Below, in pieces: positions 4,907-49,513 of a stretch of 64,000 nt of DNA. Source of the stretch: Escherichia phage EK5; sequence record PQ805429.1; one strand, written 5' to 3'. Position 1 is the first letter of the stretch. Each line of letters starts with the position of its first letter. Under the pieces are notes generated by a model, which made no database searches, was not told the DNA's origin, and saw only the letters and a list, made by a program, of their open reading frames with translations. The position numbers and the translations under genes are program-made.

Positions 4907-7900
4907 TCACTCCTTAGGTCGAACTCTTACACGGAGTCTCGATTGACGCTTACTGCGTTCAAGCTTCTCTGACAATGAGCCACGTTTAATCTTAGGCTTC
5001 CCTTCGTCATTAAACTTCTCCAAGAACTGCAAGTACTCAGTACGATTTGTTGTCTTGTAAGAAGGAATCTTGATATCAGGATTCTCTTCAATCACACGTC
5101 TCATCTTCGCTACATCATCCCTACCAAGCAACTTACTCTTAGCCTGTTCAGCTGTAGAACCAAAGATTTTCTCCAGTGCTCTAGATTTGTTACCACCTGC
5201 GGACGAAGCACCAAGTTTAGCAATGGCAGAGTAATCATCAGCACTAAACCAAGCTACTGGATTATCACCATACTTCTTCTTGTTTTCAGCAGCAGTCTGC
5301 AATGCACGTACAAAGCGACGGTTGTTACCAGCCTTATCTGCACCATGAACCCTGTCTAAAACTTCAGCCACACTAGCCAACTCATCCAAGCTCTTCCCAC
5401 TCAAGAAAGCTTTCTCTACTTTATCAGCAAAGACCTCTTCCTGTTGTTTAATGCTTTCCAAGATATCAGAATTTGCTTGAGATTTTTCATCATCAGGCAG
5501 AGCAGAACGAATCTTCTCCATCTCCAATTCTTCCTCTTGCAGTTTCTTAATATCAGAGTCAACCTTCTGAGCCTCCTCAATAGCCTTCCTAGTATCCGCA
5601 TCCAAGTTATCAAGCTTACCTTCAGTATCTCCAGTAACCTTAACAATCTCTTTCTCGATAGGAGTCATTGATTCGTACTTCTTAGCAAACTTCTCAACAT
5701 CAGCTTCGATACGAGAACGAGCATTCTGATGTTCAGTAGGAGTCATAGGTTTCTCAAGAAGTGCATAACGGTTGTCCATATAGGAACCAGCAAACGCTTC
5801 AGCATCCTCTCTAGATATGCCCTTATCTTCCATAGTACGCATCAGGCGGCGATGAATGTCATCACGTTGACGTTGTACTGCCATAAGATCATTCTCACGC
5901 TCTTGGGCCGCTTTAAGCTCTTCACTGCGCTTAACTCTCTTGTCCACATCAAACTTACGGTTCATCTCTTCCGCTTGCTCGTACATCTTGTTCCACTTGG
6001 CCTGACGAGCATCTTCCTCTGCATCAGTTAAACGACGCTGACGATCAAGGTAATCTGACTCGGCGTTGTGGATACGTTCAATGTAACTACGGAACTTCTC
6101 TGGAGGAACTGGAGAGTTCTTGTCATGGTGAGCAGCCAACTGTTTCAATGTACGAGATTCCTGAGCCTCACGAACAGGTTTAGGTAAACCTTCCATCATC
6201 TTCTCAATCTCACTCTTCTGAGCTGCAATAGCCTCTAAAGTTTTACGTTCATTCTCAACAGCAGCCTTAGCATCTGAACGAGCCTGAGCCTTTTTCCTGA
6301 GGGTAGCAAGACGTTCTTCACGAGCCTGTAAGTGCTTAGCAGCAGCTTCGTATTGAGAGTTCTTGTTAGCTTTGTTGAAGGCATTCACTTCTCTGTTGTA
6401 GGTGTTAATAAACCCATCCCAAATATCCTTCATCTGACCAACTTCCAAAGCCTCTTCCCTACCAGCCTTCTCTGAAGATTTAAACTTCCCATCTACAAAG
6501 TCATTCATCAGCTTACGCATAGCATCTTTCTGAGCAGGACGTAAAGGTTCTGAATCAATCAAAGCATCAATCTCAGACTGAAGCTCTTTCTTCTGATCAA
6601 CCAGTTTAGGAGCATCTTTCTTATCGAAAGCTTTGTTCTCTTCTAGAGCTTGTTGGTACAGTCTATCAAACTCATCCTCACGCTGCTTCTGATACAACCT
6701 TTCAGCACGACGTTTCAGACTATCCAAGTTAGTTACGTTCCCACCTAAACCTTTCTCTTCAGCACGTAATGCCTTAGTAGCAATGTCTTCTGGCAGACCA
6801 CGTTCTTTAACCCATTCAGCAAAATTAGTTCGTACAGTGTTGTTCTTAGCAGTAGCAATACCTTGCTGAGAGGCCAGCTGGTTACGAGCCATTTCTTCAT
6901 GACGTTCAGTGTTGATAGCATTATCTTCCTGACGAATACGACGCATCAGTTCCTTAGGATCGCCTTTATAAGCCAAGAAGTTTTCAGCAGTAGCTTTAGC
7001 TTTAGCAGCCTTAGAGTACAGAGAACGAGCAAAGCGTTCTGCACGATCTTTAGTAGCCTGACGAGCAGCACTAGACATAGCAGCTAAACGTTCTACACCA
7101 CTTGCCGGTTTAACGTCCTGTACAGCTTCCTTAGGAGCTTTAGGAGCACGAGCAGGTAATGGCTCAGCTTTGACTGTTGGTTCCTCTACGGTTGGTTCTG
7201 GAGCCTGTGCGGCCTCTTCTTGAGCACGTTGCTGTTCCATTGCACGACGCTCCTCTAGAGGGTTACGAGCAGGGAGAGGTTCAGCCCGTGGAGCTTGTTC
7301 GACCGGAGCTTCTTGAGCTGCTGCTGCCTCTTCTTCAGCGCGACGCTGTTCAGCCTGACGGATAGCGCGTCTTTGCGCAACTAAATCACGAGCTGTGAGA
7401 GGGGTTTCTTGAGGAGTAGAAGAAGGAAGATTTTCTTCCGTCACAGTACTAGAAGAAGGCTCCCGAACCGGTTCGGTTTCCACGTCATTTTGCGTCTTAA
7501 ATTTAATGTCATCAACAACTGGTTCTTCTTCCATCTTAGCACGAGCTTCATCAGCAGTAGATTTAGCACGAGCAACTTCCAAATCACCACGAGCCAGAGA
7601 GCGGATAGCTTCACTATTAGACTCTTGTTGCTTAACACGTTGAGAACGGGCACGCTGAGAAGAGAAGCGATTCAGAGCATATTTAGCAGCACCGAGAGTG
7701 TTCATCACCAGACTAGGAGAAGAAGCCTCACGGAATCCATCATCAGTCAAGGAAGTCCAACCACGATCTTGGTTGCTCATGAATTTAGCTGTATTGTTCA
7801 GAGTGTAAGCATCTTGAATAGGATTAAAACCTTCAGGCATACCTTTCAGTTTCTTCAACCCACCAATAGCTTTCTTCATCTCTGGAGAAACATTATCAGC

Positions 7901-9328
7901 CATCTTCTGTAGTTCAGCAGCTTTCTCTACAAAGTTATTAAAGTCTTCACCATCACGAGCTTTGAATCGATTTGCTTCATTGTAGAAAGTCTTGTAAGCA
8001 TCAATGAAATCACGGTCAGCTTGTGTACGATTCTTAATATCAATCGGACTACCAGTAAAATCACCAGAAGCTCGGAGAGAAGTTAATTCACGGTCTAGGT
8101 TATCTAGAACATCTGTAAGAGCTTTCGTATTGTCTTTGGTGTAATCAGCCATTGCATCCTTCATAGCAACAGCCTGCTTCTGGTTGTGCTCGTTGTCAGC
8201 GAATGCTTTACCACGAGTCTTAGCAGGAGAAGCTAAAGGGTTGAGGCCCGGAATGTTGGAATGTTCTTTCTGAACGGAAGCAGCTTTCTCAGCACGAGCT
8301 TGGTCAGTATTAAGAATACGCTGAGCAGCAGGAGAGTCTACAGCAACAGCATCTGTAATACGGAATCCATTCTCATCCAGAAGGTTCAGAGCAGAAGCAG
8401 CGTTAGCAGTTTCAGCTTTAGAGTAAGCTTCTTTCAGTTCATCAATATTCTTAGCACTACGAATTAGTTCATCATCAGCAGCAATATCAGTCTTCGCATA
8501 CTCTGGAGTGTTCTTGAAGACAGTAGAATCCGGACGGCTAATCAAACCATGAACCCCACCAACTGCACCACCGAATGCAGCACCCATAGCCCCTTCTTCG
8601 ATAACACCTTCCAATGTCTTAGCTAGATCGTTGTCGTCGCCATACTTGTTCTGAACTTCAGCAGCACCCACAAGAGCACCACCTTTAGCACCAGCCACTG
8701 CGTTACTAGCAACGTTCTGACCAATACGTCCAAGTGTGGACTCAGCTGTACCAACAGCACCCGGAAGGATTCTCTGAGCCGCATAGTTAGCACCACCAAC
8801 TAAGGCTGCATCTAGAATAGACTTATCCTCTCCCTCTTCAGGGGTTTGGTCTGCATATGCACGACCTGTCTCACGACCTGCGATGATAGCAGCAGCAGCC
8901 AATGGGTTAGCAACTGTCAAACCGATATCACCAGCAACGCCAGCATACTGACCGACAGTTTTACCAATCCCATCCTCAATCTTATCCATACGTTCTTTCA
9001 GAAGGTTCTGAGAGTTCTCTTGGATACGCTTACCATAACTAGTTTGTGCTCCAGCTAGATTCTCACCAATCTCAACTAAACCACCAATACCTTTAGCAGC
9101 ACTAGCTGCAATATTTGCACCACCAGATTGAAGAGCATTTGACACACCTTGAGCAAACTCACCTATAGCACCACGTTCTTCTTGTTGTGGTTGTGCTACT
9201 GGTTGTTCCTCAGGAATAGAGCCACCTGCTGCCTTATATTGTTCTCTCATTTGAGCTTGTTGCTCCGGAGAGGCATTCAGATACGCAGGAGCTTTGGAAG
9301 CTTCTTCCCACGGTTTAATGTTAGCCAT
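4907..9328 (-). CDS. Large virion internal/ejection protein or tape-measure-like protein (1473 aa)
   Basis: Start at MANIKPWEE with SD AAAGGAG; long coiled-coil E/K/R/A-rich regions plus a G/A-rich hydrophobic segment; last gene of the late block. Confidence 0.55.
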   Translation of the reverse strand: MANIKPWEEASKAPAYLNASPEQQAQMREQYKAAGGSIPEEQPVAQPQQEERGAIGEFAQGVSNALQSGGANIAASAAKGIGGLVEIGENLAGAQTSYGKRIQENSQNLLKERMDKIEDGIGKTVGQYAGVAGDIGLTVANPLAAAAIIAGRETGRAYADQTPEEGEDKSILDAALVGGANYAAQRILPGAVGTAESTLGRIGQNVASNAVAGAKGGALVGAAEVQNKYGDDNDLAKTLEGVIEEGAMGAAFGGAVGGVHGLISRPDSTVFKNTPEYAKTDIAADDELIRSAKNIDELKEAYSKAETANAASALNLLDENGFRITDAVAVDSPAAQRILNTDQARAEKAASVQKEHSNIPGLNPLASPAKTRGKAFADNEHNQKQAVAMKDAMADYTKDNTKALTDVLDNLDRELTSLRASGDFTGSPIDIKNRTQADRDFIDAYKTFYNEANRFKARDGEDFNNFVEKAAELQKMADNVSPEMKKAIGGLKKLKGMPEGFNPIQDAYTLNNTAKFMSNQDRGWTSLTDDGFREASSPSLVMNTLGAAKYALNRFSSQRARSQRVKQQESNSEAIRSLARGDLEVARAKSTADEARAKMEEEPVVDDIKFKTQNDVETEPVREPSSSTVTEENLPSSTPQETPLTARDLVAQRRAIRQAEQRRAEEEAAAAQEAPVEQAPRAEPLPARNPLEERRAMEQQRAQEEAAQAPEPTVEEPTVKAEPLPARAPKAPKEAVQDVKPASGVERLAAMSSAARQATKDRAERFARSLYSKAAKAKATAENFLAYKGDPKELMRRIRQEDNAINTERHEEMARNQLASQQGIATAKNNTVRTNFAEWVKERGLPEDIATKALRAEEKGLGGNVTNLDSLKRRAERLYQKQREDEFDRLYQQALEENKAFDKKDAPKLVDQKKELQSEIDALIDSEPLRPAQKDAMRKLMNDFVDGKFKSSEKAGREEALEVGQMKDIWDGFINTYNREVNAFNKANKNSQYEAAAKHLQAREERLATLRKKAQARSDAKAAVENERKTLEAIAAQKSEIEKMMEGLPKPVREAQESRTLKQLAAHHDKNSPVPPEKFRSYIERIHNAESDYLDRQRRLTDAEEDARQAKWNKMYEQAEEMNRKFDVDKRVKRSEELKAAQERENDLMAVQRQRDDIHRRLMRTMEDKGISREDAEAFAGSYMDNRYALLEKPMTPTEHQNARSRIEADVEKFAKKYESMTPIEKEIVKVTGDTEGKLDNLDADTRKAIEEAQKVDSDIKKLQEEELEMEKIRSALPDDEKSQANSDILESIKQQEEVFADKVEKAFLSGKSLDELASVAEVLDRVHGADKAGNNRRFVRALQTAAENKKKYGDNPVAWFSADDYSAIAKLGASSAGGNKSRALEKIFGSTAEQAKSKLLGRDDVAKMRRVIEENPDIKIPSYKTTNRTEYLQFLEKFNDEGKPKIKRGSLSEKLERSKRQSRLRVRVRPKE

Positions 9329-41870: not shown

Positions 41871-42087
41871 TAGGAATATAGCCCCCTCTTTTAGTACTAT
41901 GACGCTCTTTCTGTAGCGTCGTGCCCTCTCCCCATTTGAAGCTTCCGCATAGCCGCCTTTGAGCGGCTTTTTGCGTTGCTGTAAGTGCATTTGCGAGTGT
42001 ATTTATAGCAACGGTCATGTGTTGCTTTCAGGTTTGCCCCGGCTACGGCTGGGGCTTTTTTATGTCTACTGTATAGGAATCTATGAA

Positions 42088-42768
42088 ATGAAAGCAATTG
42101 TATTATCCTCAATCCTAGCTCTGTCCATAATGGCATCGCCTGTTTTTGCTAAAAGTGGAAACAATGGCAATGGCAATGGAGGTTGTGGTGTAGGTCAATC
42201 TACCAATGGTTGCGGTATCGGAGATTGGTTTAAAGGTGAAAAAGGTGATCAGGGAGAGAAAGGCGACACTGGCGCTAATGGCATTGATGGTAAAGATGGC
42301 ATTGATGGAGAACAAGGCGCTCAAGGTGAAAAAGGTGATTCTGGTGCAGATGGTAAGAAAGGCGAAACTGGCCTAACTGGTGCAGCAGGTTTGAATGGCG
42401 TTGACGGATTAAATGGCAAAAACGGTAAAGATGCAGATATGTCTGCCGTTAATGCTAACGCCAAATCCATCAAAGCTCTGGAACAATCCACCAATAAACG
42501 TTTTGCTTCTTTGCAAAAACAAGTAGACCGTAACCGTGATCATGCCTCTGCTGGTATTTCTGGCGTGGCTGCAATGGCTAACATCCCGCAAGTAAGTCAA
42601 GGATCTGCTTTCTCTGTTGGTGCTGGGGTAGGTGCTTACGATGGTGAATCTGCTCTTGCTATTGGTGTTAGTGCTCGTTTCAATGAAAACTTAGTAACTA
42701 AAGCATCAGTGGCAATGACTTCAGAGAGTGACGCTGTTCTGGGCGCTGGTGTAAGTTACGAGTGGTAA
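42088..42768 (+). CDS. Secreted collagen-repeat protein with YadA-like C-terminal anchor
   Basis: Signal peptide MKAIVLSSILALSIMASPVFA; Gly-X-Y repeats; C-terminus ISGVAAMANIP ... VGAGVGAYDGESALAIGVSARF ... GAGVSYEW; real start is internal to the listed 41959 ORF. Confidence 0.6.
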   Translation: MKAIVLSSILALSIMASPVFAKSGNNGNGNGGCGVGQSTNGCGIGDWFKGEKGDQGEKGDTGANGIDGKDGIDGEQGAQGEKGDSGADGKKGETGLTGAAGLNGVDGLNGKNGKDADMSAVNANAKSIKALEQSTNKRFASLQKQVDRNRDHASAGISGVAAMANIPQVSQGSAFSVGAGVGAYDGESALAIGVSARFNENLVTKASVAMTSESDAVLGAGVSYEW

Positions 42769-42878: not shown

Positions 42879-43268
42879 ATGTTGACATTGACTATTTATT
42901 ATGAGGCAGGGAATCAGCCAACCGCATGTAAGGCTTTAGTTGCGGATACCGTGATAAATAGAATGGCCCAACGAAAACTGACCGCTGAACAGGTGATAAG
43001 ACAGAAGAACCAGTTTGAGTGGATTCCGGTACTATTAAAACAGGAGAAACCTTATAAACGTTATGTAAAGCTGATTCGTGATAAAAATCCGATGACTAAG
43101 CAAGCCATTGGAGAAAGCGAGCGACTTGCTAAACGTGCCCTTAAGAAGAATTATGTTCCGCTGTACAGTGGGACTTACTTTCAGAGTAAGAGCGAAGGGG
43201 TGCCAAAATGGTATGCCAATCCTATGTATTGTGGTGATTTAGTGTTCGATAATAGCTCTAGGGAATAA
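42879..43268 (+). CDS. SleB/CwlJ-like cell-wall hydrolase (Hydrolase_2-like)
   Basis: TIYYEAGNQPTACKALVADTVINRM ... QFEWIP resembles the SleB-family core. Confidence 0.45.
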   Translation: MLTLTIYYEAGNQPTACKALVADTVINRMAQRKLTAEQVIRQKNQFEWIPVLLKQEKPYKRYVKLIRDKNPMTKQAIGESERLAKRALKKNYVPLYSGTYFQSKSEGVPKWYANPMYCGDLVFDNSSRE

Positions 43269-43467
43269 TCACTAGTGCCAGATTTGACAAACTAAATTCC
43301 TTTATAAACCAACCACTTAGTAAATTTATCGAAAAAGATGGTAGTATTCTGGGACTATGGGTAATGCTCTGTATATAGACCCTTTGAAAATTTCTTAGAA
43401 AATAAGTTTACTAAATATAACTTACTTAAATAATATTACTTTTAATCTCTGATAAAGGGTAAATAAT

Positions 43468-43764
43468 ATGACTTTAGAAGTATATAAATTCCTTTTTGTA
43501 AGCTGTTTAACTATCAGCGTTCTAGGATTTATTGTTCTCAGAAACAAAGCAGCAAGCTGGGAAAGAATGTATAAATCCCTAGTTCGAGTGGATGAGATGT
43601 ATAACGAGAAGGTTAAAGTAACACTCAACGATCTTATTATGCAAGTTGAAGACAGAAACAAACGTCTTCAGAACCTCAATCATGAAGTGTTGCGACTTGC
43701 TCGTGCTAATGAAGACTTACGAGTGGCTATTGCTAAGCAGCAGGAGATTAACAGTGAAAGTTAA
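43468..43764 (+). CDS. Membrane-anchored coiled-coil protein
   Basis: N-terminal TM FLFVSCLTISVLGFIVL followed by coiled coil. Confidence 0.45.
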   Translation: MTLEVYKFLFVSCLTISVLGFIVLRNKAASWERMYKSLVRVDEMYNEKVKVTLNDLIMQVEDRNKRLQNLNHEVLRLARANEDLRVAIAKQQEINSES

Positions 43765-43990
43765 TATTAAATCTGATTATACAATGCTTCGATTAAATAA
43801 CATGAAGCCGGGCGTTCTGTTTGAGCGTAAAGAATCCCTTTACATTAGAACCGACACATTGTACGCAGACAATTATGTCAACTGTGTTGATGTGGTAACT
43901 GGAAAGCTCATGCCTTTTAAACGGGATGAAGTCTGCCAAGTACGTAGTGATCTCCACATAACTAACATAGGGGCTAAGGATGAAGATTAA
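43754..43990 (+). CDS. Small-protein family A, copy 1
   Basis: GTG start with SD AGGAG 7 nt upstream; shares MK(I/V)...G.VF pattern with six other ORFs. Confidence 0.45.
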   Translation: MKVNIKSDYTMLRLNNMKPGVLFERKESLYIRTDTLYADNYVNCVDVVTGKLMPFKRDEVCQVRSDLHITNIGAKDED

Positions 43991-44237
43991 TCTTGAAGTA
44001 AATGAACCGTCTTTGTGTGTTGGTGATCTCAAACTTGGAGATGTATTCCAAATCAGGGAAACACGAGCAGATTTCTACATGGTTGTTCAGCTATTTACCT
44101 CACAGATTGAAGAGACCAAGCCTTCTGATGGTGGTTGTGTCGTCCTTAGTCTAACAAATAAGCAAGTCCTTAAGCTCAGCTCGAAAAGCAAGGTTGTTCT
44201 TCTTCATGATGTTGTTATTACTAACAAGGGTAAGTGA
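43980..44237 (+). CDS. Small-protein family A, copy 2
   Basis: MKINLEVNEPSLCVGDLKLGDVF; start overlaps upstream stop. Confidence 0.5.
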   Translation: MKINLEVNEPSLCVGDLKLGDVFQIRETRADFYMVVQLFTSQIEETKPSDGGCVVLSLTNKQVLKLSSKSKVVLLHDVVITNKGK

Positions 44238-44456
44238 ATGGAAATTAAAGTAGTTGATTATCCTAAATATGCAAATGCAGAAGACGTTAAAAGTGGTGAT
44301 GTTTTCTCTTACGATAGACGTTTCTGGCTGATGTTAGAAGATAAAACTCCTGATGGTTTGTGTAAGGCCGCCGATCTGAACAGTGGTTCTGTTGAAGTCT
44401 TCGGTTTATCAACCACTGTTATGCCCCGTCCTGATCTGTGTTTATCCCAAAAGTAA
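44238..44456 (+). CDS. Small-protein family A, copy 3
   Basis: MEIKVVDYPKYANAEDVKSGDVFSYDRRFW; closest to copy 4. Confidence 0.5.
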   Translation: MEIKVVDYPKYANAEDVKSGDVFSYDRRFWLMLEDKTPDGLCKAADLNSGSVEVFGLSTTVMPRPDLCLSQK

Positions 44457-44944
44457 CATCGACTTATAGCCCTTGTGTTTATCAGAGGGCTATGTGAGGG
44501 TGTTCCTCATTAACTTATTAATTCAGGCATATGCCACACCGCTAGGGAGAGCTTGCTCGAACATCCGGTGTTAGACTAAAACCTGTCAATTTTCGAAAGA
44601 CTTTCTGATATGTAGGGGTACATATTGGTTTGGGATTCAGGAGACTTCCTAGGGGTAGGGAGTCTTCACCAGTTGGAATAAGAGATAGCTCTAGAACCTG
44701 AACTCTTAGGCAGAGAGGGTCGGCAATGAGTACGCGGTCAGAATTAGTCTACTGACTAGAGCTATCCCTTATATTAACTGGCAATAATGCCTCCACTAAC
44801 AAAGAGAGATAGGTATGAAAGTATCAACCAAACGTATGAACCGCCCTGAACGTATGGATGTAGTAGCTAATGGTGCTCTGAAACTGGAAGGCTTTTGGAT
44901 TCATGCAATGTCAGCCATCCGTAACAAACAAGGCAATTGGACCT

Positions 44945-45154
44945 ATGCCGGTTAAGACAACCCATGTGATAGGTATGCGAGAGATCATTCGCATTGCCTT
45001 GATGGAACACACAGAACGCAACATTCAACTAACGCAAATCTCTAAGTGTCTTAATTGCTCAAGAGATGTGGCTAAGGAGTTGATGTTTGCATTCCTGTAT
45101 AATGCAGAAGACGAAATGCTACAGAATCATCTGATTCGTTGTGTTAGTCAATAA
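44945..45154 (+). CDS. Hypothetical protein
   Basis: ATG 44945 inside the listed 44903 ORF; terminator follows. Confidence 0.4.
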   Translation: MPVKTTHVIGMREIIRIALMEHTERNIQLTQISKCLNCSRDVAKELMFAFLYNAEDEMLQNHLIRCVSQ

Positions 45155-45159
45155 AGAGA

Positions 45160-45188
45160 GGCTGCCTTCGGGCGGCCTTTGTTGTTTT
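45160..45188 (+). terminator. Rho-independent terminator
   Basis: GGCTGCC-TTCG-GGCGGCC hairpin followed by TTTGTTGTTTT. Confidence 0.6.
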
Positions 45189-45232
45189 AATTAAGGGTCA
45201 GCTCTTACTTAAACTAACAAGAGGAAGCTAAA

Positions 45233-45409
45233 ATGTCTAAGCAAACAATCAAACATACGCAAGCTGGTTACTCTTATGTCAACTCCCCTTGCTGTGGTGC
45301 TCGTGTCAATCTGGTTAAGGAAGAGGTTCGTATCGTTCAGCGTGGCGCTACTGTTGTTCGCTCATGCTGTGTCTGTGGTAATGACATTTTTATCAAAGGT
45401 AAAGTATGA
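45233..45409 (+). CDS. Small zinc-ribbon protein (58 aa)
   Basis: SD GAGGAAG; two CC pairs (SPCCGARV and SCCVCGND); below the ORF-track size cutoff. Confidence 0.4.
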   Translation: MSKQTIKHTQAGYSYVNSPCCGARVNLVKEEVRIVQRGATVVRSCCVCGNDIFIKGKV

Positions 45410-45657
45410 AAAACTTTCAAGCTGCACCGATAACTAAAGTGATCGAAGTTGATGATGTGATGATGACTGTTCCTCTGAACACTCGTTACATTGCAATTGA
45501 CAGGATGGGTTATGTATGGGCTTGGAAGATTAAGCCTAGCTATAACGCACTGTTCGACGAGTTTGTTTGTACTGGTATTTACAGTCCTACATTCTTGGGT
45601 TTATTTGGAGAGTTCGAAGGTCAGTATAAAATCATCACTCTCCCTGCTTGTGCTTGA
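45406..45657 (+). CDS. Hypothetical protein
   Basis: Start overlaps upstream stop (ATGA). Confidence 0.4.
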   Translation: MKNFQAAPITKVIEVDDVMMTVPLNTRYIAIDRMGYVWAWKIKPSYNALFDEFVCTGIYSPTFLGLFGEFEGQYKIITLPACA

Positions 45658-45664
45658 GGTTAAT

Positions 45665-45826
45665 ATGTTCAAGTGGCTAAAGCGTGTCTTTCATTGTCAT
45701 GATTGGAAGATTATTAATACTCGCCCTCTGGTCTATACAGATTCGGATGGGAACAATGACAAGGGCACACGTTACGTTATTCAGTGTAAGGTGTGTGGTG
45801 ATGTTAGTCATCGTGATGTAATCTAA
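45665..45826 (+). CDS. Small-protein family B, copy 1
   Basis: MFKWLKRVFHCHDWK ... CKVCGD; SD GAGG. Confidence 0.5.
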   Translation: MFKWLKRVFHCHDWKIINTRPLVYTDSDGNNDKGTRYVIQCKVCGDVSHRDVI

Positions 45827-45835
45827 GGAATCATT

Positions 45836-46000
45836 ATGATCAAATGGTTCAAACGCTTCTTTCATTTCCATGAGTGGGAAGATCTTCATACTTATGAACT
45901 GACGATCACAAATAAACTTACTGACAGAGAGCGACAAGGGTTGCGTATCTACTCTCGCTGTAAAGTGTGTGGTCTGCACAAGAAAACAGATCTGATCTAA
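45836..46000 (+). CDS. Small-protein family B, copy 2
   Basis: MIKWFKRFFHFHEWE ... CKVCGL; tandem to copy 1. Confidence 0.5.
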   Translation: MIKWFKRFFHFHEWEDLHTYELTITNKLTDRERQGLRIYSRCKVCGLHKKTDLI

Positions 46001-46008
46001 GGGGTGTT

Positions 46009-46218
46009 ATGTTCTTTCGTAAGAAAAAGCCCGAAGATTCTGGATGTAAACATGAGTGGGTGATCACTGAGAACCTACATATCACCCACGCTAAAGACAC
46101 TCCGGTCGAGAGAAAAGAATCTCGTGTATCTCGTATCTGTAAACACTGTTTGAAAATAGAACAGCATAAAGTTCCCGGTCATATCGGTCACGATGTAGCC
46201 ATTCGTATCTTTAGTTAA
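46009..46218 (+). CDS. Small-protein family B, copy 3 (divergent)
   Basis: CKHEW ... CKHC; SD GGGG. Confidence 0.45.
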   Translation: MFFRKKKPEDSGCKHEWVITENLHITHAKDTPVERKESRVSRICKHCLKIEQHKVPGHIGHDVAIRIFS

Positions 46219-46227
46219 ACAAATCTA

Positions 46228-46303
46228 GCACCCTTAGCTCAATGGACAGAGCAGCGACCTTCTAAGTCGTTGGTTACAGGTTCGAGTCCTGTAGGGTGCA
46301 CCA
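46228..46303 (+). tRNA. tRNA-Arg (anticodon UCU, reads AGA), CCA encoded
   Basis: Hand-folded cloverleaf: acceptor GCACCCT/AGGGTGC, D-stem GCTC/GAGC, anticodon stem GCGAC/GTCGT with loop CTTCTAA, T-arm ACAGG-TTCGAGT-CCTGT, discriminator A then CCA. Confidence 0.9.
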
Positions 46304-46322
46304 ATCAACGTAGGAGGTAGTT

Positions 46323-46622
46323 ATGAGTTGGGGTGGTGTAATATCCTTAATCTGTATCTTCCTTGTCTGTGTGGCCCTTACAGGCTGCGTACAGAGCCGT
46401 CCTGATGGATGGTGTGCAGTAGCAGTGGATGGTATTTGTGTATCTCGCTGGCATAAAGGTGAGAAGGTTCCTTCTGGTGAGATTGATATGCGCTGGAACG
46501 GAGCAACCTGCTCTAATGCTAACCCTTCTATCAACGAAGAGAAGTCTACGCCAGACAGTGTTGTGATTGATACAGCGTTGTGGTGTGGTGGCTCTACAGT
46601 TACCACTGGTAAGGAGTGGTAA
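46323..46622 (+). CDS. Cys-rich lipoprotein
   Basis: Strong SD GGAGG; signal peptide with lipobox LTGC. Confidence 0.6.
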   Translation: MSWGGVISLICIFLVCVALTGCVQSRPDGWCAVAVDGICVSRWHKGEKVPSGEIDMRWNGATCSNANPSINEEKSTPDSVVIDTALWCGGSTVTTGKEW

Positions 46623-46623
46623 C

Positions 46624-46872
46624 ATGACAGCTCATTATTGGAATACAAAGAAGCTCCTTGAAGAGATGGCTGGAGTTAGTAGAGTACAGCTAATCTCTAT
46701 GCTTCGAATGGATGCTCGCTCCTTACGCTTCCAAGTAAAGATTGGTAACTTCAGTGATGGCCTTTATTACACGCTGAAGGAAAGGATTAAGAAGACACAC
46801 TTCATTATATATGGACTCAAACCGAGAACATATGTTAACTACATGTATTGGGATACATGCTACGATAATTGA
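46624..46872 (+). CDS. Hypothetical protein
   Basis: ATG 46624 with SD AAGGAG, internal to the listed 46567 ORF. Confidence 0.4.
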   Translation: MTAHYWNTKKLLEEMAGVSRVQLISMLRMDARSLRFQVKIGNFSDGLYYTLKERIKKTHFIIYGLKPRTYVNYMYWDTCYDN

Positions 46873-46879
46873 GGTTATT

Positions 46880-47101
46880 ATGAAACTAGACTCTAAGCAG
46901 TCACTTAAAACCGTTGAGCTGTCCAGCCTTCCAAACGGAAGTGTTTTTGGTCATGATAAACACTTCTGGATTAAAACAGACATCATAAACGATGGATATA
47001 TCACCTGTGTCAATCTTTGGAACGGCTCAGTGGATGGTTATCGCCCTAGCGCAAAGGTAGTCCCTCAACCTGATGCAAAGGCTGTAGGTTTAGTTTATTA
47101 G
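46880..47101 (+). CDS. Small-protein family A, copy 4
   Basis: MKLDSKQSLKTVELSSLPNGSVFGHDKHFW, closely similar to copy 3. Confidence 0.5.
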   Translation: MKLDSKQSLKTVELSSLPNGSVFGHDKHFWIKTDIINDGYITCVNLWNGSVDGYRPSAKVVPQPDAKAVGLVY

Positions 47102-47436
47102 GGAGTATGTATGAGTTGTTTTGGTGGCGGTGAAGTAGATGACGATGATGACATGGAATCCAACGGTACATGTCCTGATTGTGGATGTGAGACGTTTGAT
47201 GGGGTGTCTGTTTATCCTGCCTGTAGTTACTCACCAGTGATCTGTAAAACATGTGGTGATCAGCCGTGTGACCAATCTTGTTAAGAGAATCTTATGACTG
47301 AAGAATTTTTAGAGTGGTTTGGGAACACCTTCAAAGATTATCTATTCTCTCCAGAAGACTTTGAAGAACTGAAAACCTACACTTGGTTGGCTTGGAGAGA
47401 TAGCCGACGAAAGTTGAACAAGTAAGAGATGATTAA

Positions 47437-47694
47437 ATGGGTTTACTTGATATTTTTATCTCAGTTTACTTTATTGGAGTATTCCTTTCTGTCTTAGTGA
47501 TGAAACTGCTATACAAGAAAGGTCTACTAAAAGGGGTCATTACAACAGGGTCTACCAGCTCTGAACCTGATGAGATGATGGTTGTTCTCTTAATTGTGTT
47601 GTGGCCTATCTCAATACTGTCAGGAGTTTTTTATCCAATAGGTTGGCTTCTGTTTAAAGCATATGATGCAGTTATGCATTTTATCTTTAAGTAA
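47437..47694 (+). CDS. Small membrane protein (two TM helices)
   Basis: Two hydrophobic helices. Confidence 0.45.
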   Translation: MGLLDIFISVYFIGVFLSVLVMKLLYKKGLLKGVITTGSTSSEPDEMMVVLLIVLWPISILSGVFYPIGWLLFKAYDAVMHFIFK

Positions 47695-47984
47695 TATCGT
47701 GAAGGATTCTTACGAGAGTCCTTTGAGATAGGACTTCAGATCTCCTATCAAACTAACATTCATGTAACTAGCCCATAAGGGCGTTACCCTTTAATAACCC
47801 AGCCCACTAAGGGGGCGGGAGTTTAGTGCTGGATTAGCATAACGCTTATTCCTACAAAGGCAACCGATTGTTAGATCTTACATGCAATATTAACTAATAG
47901 GATAAGGGAGGATTCGTCCCCTCCCCCTATTTTATTGAATCTTTATCTAAGCAAGTCTTATATAAACGTTTAATTGGAGGATGT

Positions 47985-48296
47985 ATGAAAGCACGAAGAA
48001 CTATATGGACTCCGATGCAGATTGAAAATCTTCGGAGACTGATCAAAGAGTACTCGGTTCAAGAAGTTGCTCAGATTATGAATGTAACGGAGAATGCTGT
48101 TAACACAGCTTGCACTAAATTCGGAATATCAAGAGCTTCAATCCGAGTCAAGTGGTCTAAAGAAGAAGATCAGTTCCTTATCCGTAATGCCGGGTTTATG
48201 TCTATTCAGAGAATGGCTGACATGCTTGGTAGAAGTTATGCTGCTGTACAGAACAGGGCATGTATGCACCTTAATATTAGCCTCAAACTTAAATAG
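47985..48296 (+). CDS. DNA-binding protein with duplicated HTH-like repeat
   Basis: Two repeats W(T/S)..E...L ... (V/M)A..(M/L)....AV..(A/R). Confidence 0.4.
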   Translation: MKARRTIWTPMQIENLRRLIKEYSVQEVAQIMNVTENAVNTACTKFGISRASIRVKWSKEEDQFLIRNAGFMSIQRMADMLGRSYAAVQNRACMHLNISLKLK

Positions 48297-48304
48297 GAAT
48301 CAAT

Positions 48305-48553
48305 ATGAAGATTACTCACAAGAAAGAAGAAGTGTCCACGGTTGATATCAACTCTCTTCCTAGTGGAGCAGTATTTAAATTCCCTGAGAGTTCTACTCTC
48401 TATGTCAAAGGGTCTGTGTCTGAAAGTCCTAATGTAACCGTTAACTCCGATCGAGCAATCACTCTTCGTCTATCTGATGGTAACGTAACAGCCCCTTCTA
48501 TCTGGTGCCGAGTTGTCCCTGTATCGGCAGAACTTTTGGTGGATAATACATAA
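48305..48553 (+). CDS. Small-protein family A, copy 5
   Basis: MKITHKKEEVSTVDINSLPSGAVF. Confidence 0.5.
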   Translation: MKITHKKEEVSTVDINSLPSGAVFKFPESSTLYVKGSVSESPNVTVNSDRAITLRLSDGNVTAPSIWCRVVPVSAELLVDNT

Positions 48554-48798
48554 TGAAAATCATCCCAAAGAAAAAGGATAATACGGTTCGATTGGAAACA
48601 ATCATTCCCGGAAACCCCTTCGTAGTTCAGCACGGAAGTGCCTCTCCTCAGTATTATATGAGGGTTGAAAATGCTTCTGGTAACATCCGTATAGCCAGTG
48701 GCTGGGTTCCTGTAGTAAATCTATCCACAGGTGTACTGTCTGTTAAAGGTCTTGATGATCAGGTAGAAATGATTCGTATGTCTGTGGTTCAGGAGTGA
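48553..48798 (+). CDS. Small-protein family A, copy 6
   Basis: MKIIPKKKDNTVRLETIIPGNPF; overlapping start/stop with copy 5. Confidence 0.5.
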   Translation: MKIIPKKKDNTVRLETIIPGNPFVVQHGSASPQYYMRVENASGNIRIASGWVPVVNLSTGVLSVKGLDDQVEMIRMSVVQE

Positions 48799-49046
48799 GA
48801 ATGAGCACGATACATATTAAGGTTCACAACAAAGAAAAAAAGAAACTCTTTGTTAAAGATCTATCAACCGCTGACATCTTTACTTTAAAAGATGATGACA
48901 GTCAGGTCATTTATTTGATGATGCCTCTATCTGGTGGATATCGCAGAGCAGTTAATTTAGGTACAGGCGAACCTCGTCCTGTTTCTGACACTCTTGAAGT
49001 TGGCGAGAAGTTTGCCAAAGCAGAGATCATCTTAACTCCGATGTAA
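48795..49046 (+). CDS. Small-protein family A, copy 7 (divergent)
   Basis: KDLSTADIFTLKDD; overlapping start/stop with copy 6. Confidence 0.4.
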   Translation: MRMSTIHIKVHNKEKKKLFVKDLSTADIFTLKDDDSQVIYLMMPLSGGYRRAVNLGTGEPRPVSDTLEVGEKFAKAEIILTPM

Positions 49047-49279
49047 GGGTAAGTAAGTGAAAACAAAAGCATATTCTTATGATGATATGATCAACCAGAA
49101 AGGCTTCGGTCAACGCCAGCCTGACGGTTCAATTATCTGGTTTGTAAACGGACAGAAAAAGGTAGCTAAATAAGCCCTCTTCTCTCCTCCTTTTAGTACT
49201 ATGACGCCTCTCTGTGGGCGGCCCAATTTGCGTAGGGAATTCCCTCTACGCAGCCATGACTTTTTAAGGAATTTCCCCT

Positions 49280-49513
49280 ATGTCTAAAGTAAGTGCAATT
49301 GATGCAATCCGTCAACCGTTCCAGTTCCAATCCAAATCAACCCAAACCTTCAGCGAACCTAAGCAAATTCGCTTGGGTGGCACAGAGAAAACTGTGTTCG
49401 ATCTGGCTAAAAACAAGAGCGTTACCGTAGTTGATGGTGGCACTCTGGTTAACGTTTCTCATCGCATCCGCACTGGCAAAACTGCCAAAGATCGTGCTAA
49501 GAAAGGCGAGTAA
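49280..49513 (+). CDS. Hypothetical protein
   Basis: ORF downstream of the conserved 18-mer element. Confidence 0.4.
   Translation: MSKVSAIDAIRQPFQFQSKSTQTFSEPKQIRLGGTEKTVFDLAKNKSVTVVDGGTLVNVSHRIRTGKTAKDRAKKGE

Follow-up and report, generated by a model that had tools for sequence, protein, structure and literature searches.

Seven small early-region genes of Escherichia phage EK5 encode members of a large, unnamed phage protein family with a predicted SH3-like barrel fold

A stretch of 64,000 nucleotides from Escherichia phage EK5 (sequence record PQ805429.1; the whole stretch is referred to here as the window) was analysed for seven small genes, named c1 to c7 (Table 1), which an initial annotation had grouped as one family of paralogous proteins in an early region. 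All seven open reading frames (ORFs) were confirmed, in frame and on the plus strand, each with a Shine-Dalgarno-like sequence upstream, and they were found to belong to a large, unnamed family that is almost purely phage-borne. The N-terminus typical of the family, MK(I/V), aligns to the GTG start of c1. For c7, the ORF stood and its proposed start did not: the GTG at 48795 would add two residues, and the start is most likely the ATG at 48801, because AGGAG lies five bases upstream and the orthologs begin MSTIH. Six of the genes form two compact triplets, c1-c2-c3 and c5-c6-c7, and c4, the most central member of the family, stands alone. A gp116-like gene overlaps c1 by 11 nucleotides, c1 and c2 also overlap by 11 nucleotides, and c2 and c3 abut (TGAATG); in the second triplet, c5 and c6 overlap by 1 nucleotide (TAATG) and c6 and c7 are 2 nucleotides apart. 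These overlapping and abutting ORFs bear out the translational coupling suggested for several of the copies.

The pairwise identity among the seven copies was 15-40%. Smith-Waterman comparison against 300 shuffles gave z-scores of 15.2 for c3-c4, 9.4 for c1-c4, 7.7 for c4-c5, 4.6 for c2-c3, 3.8 for c5-c6 and 3.5 for c1-c2; the significant pairs formed a connected network of copies, and many other pairs, such as c2-c6 and c1-c7, were at shuffle level. While c3 and c4, previously described as closely similar, were the best pair, their identity was only ~31%, which is not close. Leave-one-out hidden Markov models (HMMs), searched against 618 six-frame segments of the window, recovered each of c1-c6 at rank 1 (E 1e-11 to 3e-4) and missed c7 (E 0.27, rank 3). 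The low identity, the shuffle-level pairs and the missed c7 are the points that would favour a chance resemblance. Against them stands a profile built from outside the window. This remote-only HMM was made from 116 remote relatives, taken from the matches listed in the exhaustive database search described below, and excluded the window sequences, orthologs with more than 40% identity and any sequence best matching c7. Of the 618 segments, it ranked the seven ORFs highest (E 2.7e-21 to 2.6e-7; next segment 0.02).

Composition-matched shuffles gave the same result. The initial annotation would have been contradicted by alignments no better than shuffled controls; the real copies scored 26-72 bits, and among 1000 shuffles of each no score exceeded 12.4 bits; 0/1000 reached the real scores. 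The most divergent member, c7, scored 26.4 bits against 5.2 or less in its 1000 shuffles, and the c7 and c3 orthogroup profiles aligned in register (hhalign E 5e-5). PHROG profiles, which were built independently of the window, cross-matched c1-c6, with c7 alone in phrog_12612. The ratio of nonsynonymous to synonymous substitution rates (dN/dS), calculated against orthologs in four relatives, was 0.02-0.32 in all seven copies (0.02-0.05 in c3; 0.15-0.17 in c2), indicating purifying selection. The pairwise scores, leave-one-out models, remote-only profile and shuffles all upheld the paralogy, and the seven ORFs are real, selected, expressed-looking coding paralogs.

Table 1. The seven family genes of the window, followed by other features in and around the early cluster. 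E-values are those of the remote-only profile.
Feature	Position	Strand	Product or nature	phiEco32 ortholog (identity)	E-value	PHROG (cross-matches)
c1	43754-43990	+	78 residues, GTG start	gp115 (96%)	5e-17	16423 (6570, 7832, 7431)
c2	43980-44237	+	85 residues	gp114 (only 58%)	9e-12	9955 (8365, 7832)
c3	44238-44456	+	72 residues	gp113 (99%)	5e-16	6570
c4	46880-47101	+	73 residues	gp104 (99%)		
c5	48305-48553	+	82 residues	gp97 (88%)	4e-10	7832 (6570)
c6	48553-48798	+	81 residues	gp96 (96%)	9e-15	7431 (8365)
c7	48801-49046	+	81 residues from ATG	gp95 (54%)	2.6e-7	12612
Autotransporter-like gene	42085-42768	+	Signal peptide, collagen repeats, YadA-like anchor	gp119		
Hydrolase-domain gene	42879-43268	+	129 residues			
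Hairpin	45157-45180		Terminator-like			
Second tandem family, ORF 1	45668-45826 (start and end approximate)	+	53-69 residues (range of the three ORFs)			
Second tandem family, ORF 2	45836-46000	+	as above			
Second tandem family, ORF 3	~46012-46218	+	as above			
tRNA-Arg gene	46228-46303	+	Anticodon TCT			
Hairpin	47906-47925		Terminator-like			
Sigma-70 region-4-like gene	47985-48296	+	Helix-turn-helix	gp99 (63%)		
Cyclotransferase-like gene	59607-60071	+	GGACT domain			

Structures of two copies, c4 and c7, were modelled by AlphaFold2 with family alignments, with a predicted local distance difference test score of 81 for c4 (core >90) and 82 for c7. Both were predicted to form a small SH3-like barrel of ~55 residues, in which five antiparallel strands close a barrel that can be superposed on SH3, Tudor or KOW domains; the c7 model has additional N- and C-terminal strands, paired together. 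The predicted all-beta fold agrees with the earlier description of the proteins as beta-like, and the confidence and concordance of the two models are further points against a chance resemblance. Foldseek comparison with predicted viral structures (BFVD) returned dozens of uncharacterised phage proteins of 65-90 residues, including N4 gp21, PaP3 ORF.65 and proteins of Proteus, Klebsiella, Erwinia, Yersinia, Serratia and Vibrio phages, and the lists obtained with c4 and c7 overlapped.

The core motifs, G-x-(V/I/P)-F, an aromatic Y/W about seven residues on, V-x-L-x-x-G, and V-x-P near the C-terminus, were found throughout, apart from one residue each in two copies: the first glycine is alanine in c7 and the second glycine is lysine in c2. 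The G-x-(V/P/I)-F signature named in the initial annotation therefore holds for six copies, with A-D-I-F in its place in c7. Across 135 relatives, G20, F23 and G49 were near-invariant and the other conserved positions were hydrophobic (Y30, V44, L46, V60); no conserved histidine, cysteine, serine or charged cluster suggestive of catalysis or metal binding was identified. The loop at residues ~33-43 of c4, in the hairpin between the second and third long strands, varied from 6 to 26 residues across the relatives, and c2 carries the longest insertion in this loop among the seven. The relatives had a median net charge of -2.4; 69% of them were acidic and 4% basic. The seven copies of the window, of 8-9.5 kDa, were mostly neutral to acidic, with an isoelectric point (pI) of 4.7-9.2 and a net charge of -3.5 to +1.7; c3 is an acidic copy, and c6 and c7 are basic.

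The HMM search called for in the initial annotation showed that the family reaches far beyond this phage. Searched exhaustively with HMMER, 1.84 billion cluster representatives yielded 1519 matches (clusters at 50% identity) at E <=0.001. Some matches were spurious: the multi-repeat protein P0123 was rejected as a cadherin-like false positive, each of its repeats having an independent E-value of ~0.05, and P0134 and P0161, giant proteins with mostly weak repeats, were uninformative. A tblastn search with the family consensus found the family in 122 phage records, comprising Kuravirus-like phages, N4 and close relatives, Pseudomonas N4-like phages, a 130-kb Vibrio phage and a 45-kb Pseudomonas phage. 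A Pfam search of the 135 relatives gave nothing meaningful, the one match being to EFP_N (E 0.001, below the gathering score), and literature searches found no account of the family or its function. Every copy in the window belongs, over its full length, to one PHROG (6570, 7832, 16423, 7431, 9955, 8365 or 12612), all of which are labelled 'unknown function'. PHROGs keeps these families separate, with phrog_12612 unlinked, whereas both the remote-only profile and the modelled structures place them together.

All seven copies are significant, full-length members of an unnamed family of phage barrels like gp21 of phage N4. N4 gp21, of 74 residues, has the same length, matches the consensus over its full length (tblastn E 5e-4), scores 4e-17 with the broad profile and 6e-17 with the remote-only profile, and matches the predicted fold (Foldseek template modelling score 0.79). 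It likewise lies among early or middle genes; N4 has one detectable copy against seven in EK5. Counterparts of gp21 are present in the Pseudomonas N4-like phages ZC03 and ZC08, as PaP3 ORF.65, and in many other virulent phages of Gammaproteobacteria. The link to N4 gp21 widens the family but adds no function.

Fused forms were also identified: many proteins of 116-184 residues contain two domains, P0237 four and P0121 five. In an unrelated phage contig from a metagenome, three copies follow one another in tandem as overlapping, coupled genes. On a phage-like JGI metagenome contig (L014), a Tad2-like gene (anti-Thoeris family, PF11195) is followed two genes later by a two-domain member, the pair occupying 6764-7210 and 8001-8450; this is a single case and a hint only. 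The five-repeat protein P0121, an SprT-like metalloprotease of Tenacibaculum, is the only cellular relative found. Its C-terminal repeats are homologous to the phage proteins (hhalign probability 97%, E 1e-10, 53 columns) and share the G-S-V-F and core pattern, but P0121 differs in being chromosomal and protease-fused and in its strongly basic loop, K-G-E-K-K-R-T-R, and is one isolated case. The chromosomal SprT-like metalloprotease genes in two metagenome-assembled genomes, of Tenacibaculum (L005, 5001-6437) and Crocinitomicaceae (L006, 4962-5579), are each followed by a mannose-1-phosphate guanylyltransferase-like gene. An ordinary single-domain Bacteroidota SprT tail, from Crocinitomicaceae, gave a weak, partial match (E 8e-4 in a 16-sequence search). 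When the SprT repeats were used as queries in a word-indexed search, just one more protein was found, too little to generalise from this fusion.

Over positions 43400-49400, more than 100 coliphage genomes with sizes of 75-79 kb share 91-96% identity with the window. By record taxonomy these relatives are not N4-like phages; they are phiEco32-like podophages of the Gordonclarkvirinae, from Kuravirus, the genus to which the window is assigned, and its sister genera Nieuwekanaalvirus and Suseptimavirus. Orthology and synteny equate c1-c7 with genes between gp95 and gp115 of phiEco32, with the order kept, and the small-gene cluster on the plus strand from ~36 kb onward corresponds to the early-class cluster of that phage. 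The phiEco32 cluster has been described as an early class of mostly unknown genes, likely to act in host takeover (PMC8948821; and by the authors of the SU10 study, PMC4281155). The early-region setting proposed for the seven genes was thus supported, and by orthology c1-c7 would belong to the phiEco32 early gene class. A scan for sigma-70 promoters gave 23 sites against 32.9 in shuffles, fewer than expected by chance, and no promoters were therefore assigned to the arrays. Proteomics of SU10 lysates listed no early product of 8-9.5 kDa, which is uninformative at such a small protein size.

Several neighbouring features were noted (Table 1), including two terminator-like hairpins. Between the c1-c3 array and a tRNA-Arg gene in the middle of the early cluster, whose position is conserved across the relatives, lies a second tandem paralog family of three ORFs. 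These share M-x-K-W-x-K-R ... H-x-W ... C-K-x-C, with 40% and 27% identity to the first copy, and showed no Pfam match. The early cluster also contains, just upstream of the c1-c3 array, a gene for a protein with a domain of cell-wall hydrolases (Pfam Hydrolase_2, E 2e-7), and further upstream lies another early-region gene, whose product has a signal peptide, collagen G-X-Y repeats (PF01391, E 3e-9) and a YadA-like outer-membrane anchor (PF03895, E 2e-19); it resembles a miniature trimeric autotransporter and is annotated 'tail protein' in the relatives. The gene directly upstream of c5 encodes a sigma-70 region-4-like helix-turn-helix (PF08281, E 2e-7) and is less similar to its phiEco32 counterpart than most of its neighbours, which exceed 93% identity. 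Downstream of an amidoligase and glutamine amidotransferase cluster (~52.6-57.3 kb) is a gamma-glutamyl cyclotransferase-like gene (Pfam GGACT, E 5e-17), on account of which a recurring weak match of the family profile at 59586-60068 was rejected as chance.

Copy number, counted with the remote-only profile, varied widely among the relatives: seven in EK5, eight in Bas91, nine in phiEco32 (two of them partial), 11 in EP335, six in ECBP2, four in SU7, where they are scattered, and three in LAMP. LAMP, a viable phage, keeps c4, c6 and c7 and represents a natural loss of four copies. Compared with phiEco32, most neighbouring genes were 93-100% identical, against the much lower values for c2 and c7 given in Table 1; two further phiEco32 family genes, gp109 and gp98, are absent from EK5. 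In Bas91, the c5 slot holds a copy with just 26% identity.

From these results we propose, with a probability of roughly 45%, that the seven proteins are non-enzymatic SH3-like barrels that act as early, diversifying and individually dispensable binders in host takeover or counter-defence. Early in infection, they would be made from polycistronic, translationally coupled messages. The barrel core is predicted to be fixed by its conserved motifs and closed by the paired N- and C-terminal strands, leaving the loop of the second-third strand hairpin and most of the surface free to vary. Each copy may then bind a different macromolecule of the host (or the phage) in stoichiometric fashion, the most likely target being a protein; the loop and adjoining surface would set the specificity, and the target would be inhibited or redirected. 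The repertoire would adapt by duplication, divergence, replacement and loss, with no single copy essential. Such a role is consistent with the acidic charge, the hypervariable loop, the lack of catalytic residues, the turnover of copies and the loss in LAMP. The early-class orthology, the mosaic divergence seen in c2 and c7, the coupled triplet of the unrelated phage contig and the member near a Tad2-like gene also speak for it. Given the acidic charge and a surface free of conserved residues, proteins are more likely targets than nucleic acids. As analogies of mechanism alone, small acidic inhibitors of phages or hosts with an SH3/Sm-like barrel, such as the antitoxin VapX and the Rho inhibitor Rof, may be compared; neither shows sequence similarity or a shared context with the phage family.

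A number of findings weigh against this proposal. The seven copies and the family consensus had no match in Pfam, NCBIfam or PADLOC, and a sequence-profile search of the PDB gave chance matches alone (E >=0.19), so that there is no homology to any characterised protein in these collections. No known anti-defence or defence family was recognised with PADLOC, Pfam and NCBIfam, a search that did not include a dedicated anti-defence library. Unlike many anti-defence genes, the family was absent from 72,556 plasmids searched by tblastn with the consensus. Among genes diverged or absent relative to phiEco32, family members were only modestly enriched (5/9 versus 7/29). The Gordonclarkvirinae are notably resistant to defence systems (PMC11990801), which is compatible with counter-defence but has no known link to c1-c7. 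The two-, four- and five-domain fusions and the coupled triplets suggest that the copies could act jointly and not on separate targets, and the strongly basic loop of the SprT-fused cellular relative hints at an ancestral binding of nucleic acids.

This last point leads to an explanation that we regard as unlikely but the strongest of the competitors, namely that the copies are nucleic-acid-binding small barrels of the KOW, Tudor, Sm or cold-shock type, which would bind phage or host DNA or RNA and regulate early transcription, translation or replication. Spartan-type proteases carry DNA-binding modules after the protease domain, the position that the repeats have in P0121, and the N-terminal tail is rich in lysine in many family members. 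With the SprT fusion and the usual partners of the fold, this explanation stays a rival. However, the SprT fusion is a single case, the excess of acidic over basic relatives argues against general nucleic-acid binding, the window copies range in pI from 4.7 to 9.2 and in net charge from -3.5 to +1.7, and the surface lacks conserved basic or aromatic residues, the conserved positions being those of the core. The likeness to known barrels is one of fold: no sequence relation was found to Tudor, KOW, domain I of EF-P/eIF5A, the C-terminal domains of ribosomal L2 and DtxR, FeoA or the EFP_N model, none of the seven copies matched the KOW or EF-P N-terminal domain (PF00467, PF08207), and hhalign against E. 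coli EF-P gave a probability of 0.7%. The modified-lysine loop of EF-P occupies the position of the hypervariable loop in the phage family.

Somewhat less probable again is that the copies are subunits of one or two hetero-oligomers (e.g. c1-c2-c3 and c5-c6-c7), made in equal amounts through coupling and forming a multivalent functional unit. The two coupled triplets of the window, the coupled triplet of the unrelated phage contig and the covalent fusions of up to five domains maintain this arrangement as a rival, and strands could pair by way of the conserved N- and C-termini of the barrel. Copy number and the make-up of the arrays, however, vary freely, as seen in LAMP, in the scattered copies of SU7 and in the single gp21 of N4, and the replacement of the c5 slot by a distant paralog in Bas91 is hard to reconcile with an obligate heteromer. 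That the resemblance reflects chance or composition, or that the ORFs are not genes, has practically no probability left and is refuted by the remote-only profile, the dN/dS values and the shuffles.

The family first noted in EK5 is real and somewhat larger than was first seen, an unnamed family of a familiar kind, the multi-copy small early proteins of phages. Many host-takeover and counter-defence factors come from such families. The family spans ~1500 clusters at 50% identity and counts a gene of N4, a classic model phage, among its members, and it is represented neither by a Pfam or NCBIfam model nor by a solved structure; for annotators, one family replaces at least seven unrelated groups of 'hypothetical protein'. 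As the phiEco32 group includes members that grow on E. coli K-12 (BASEL Bas86-93) and LAMP offers a natural four-copy deletion, the function of the seven proteins is directly testable. More speculatively, and with less confidence than in the proposal for the seven copies themselves, the family may be a previously unrecognised, phage-wide scaffold for binding through a variable loop. Virulent phages would then keep arrays of the barrels, whether coupled genes or fused repeats, as a fast-evolving repertoire, with a separate defence or housekeeping protein of the host neutralised by each copy; part of the resistance of the phiEco32 group might then be due to its 3-11 copies.

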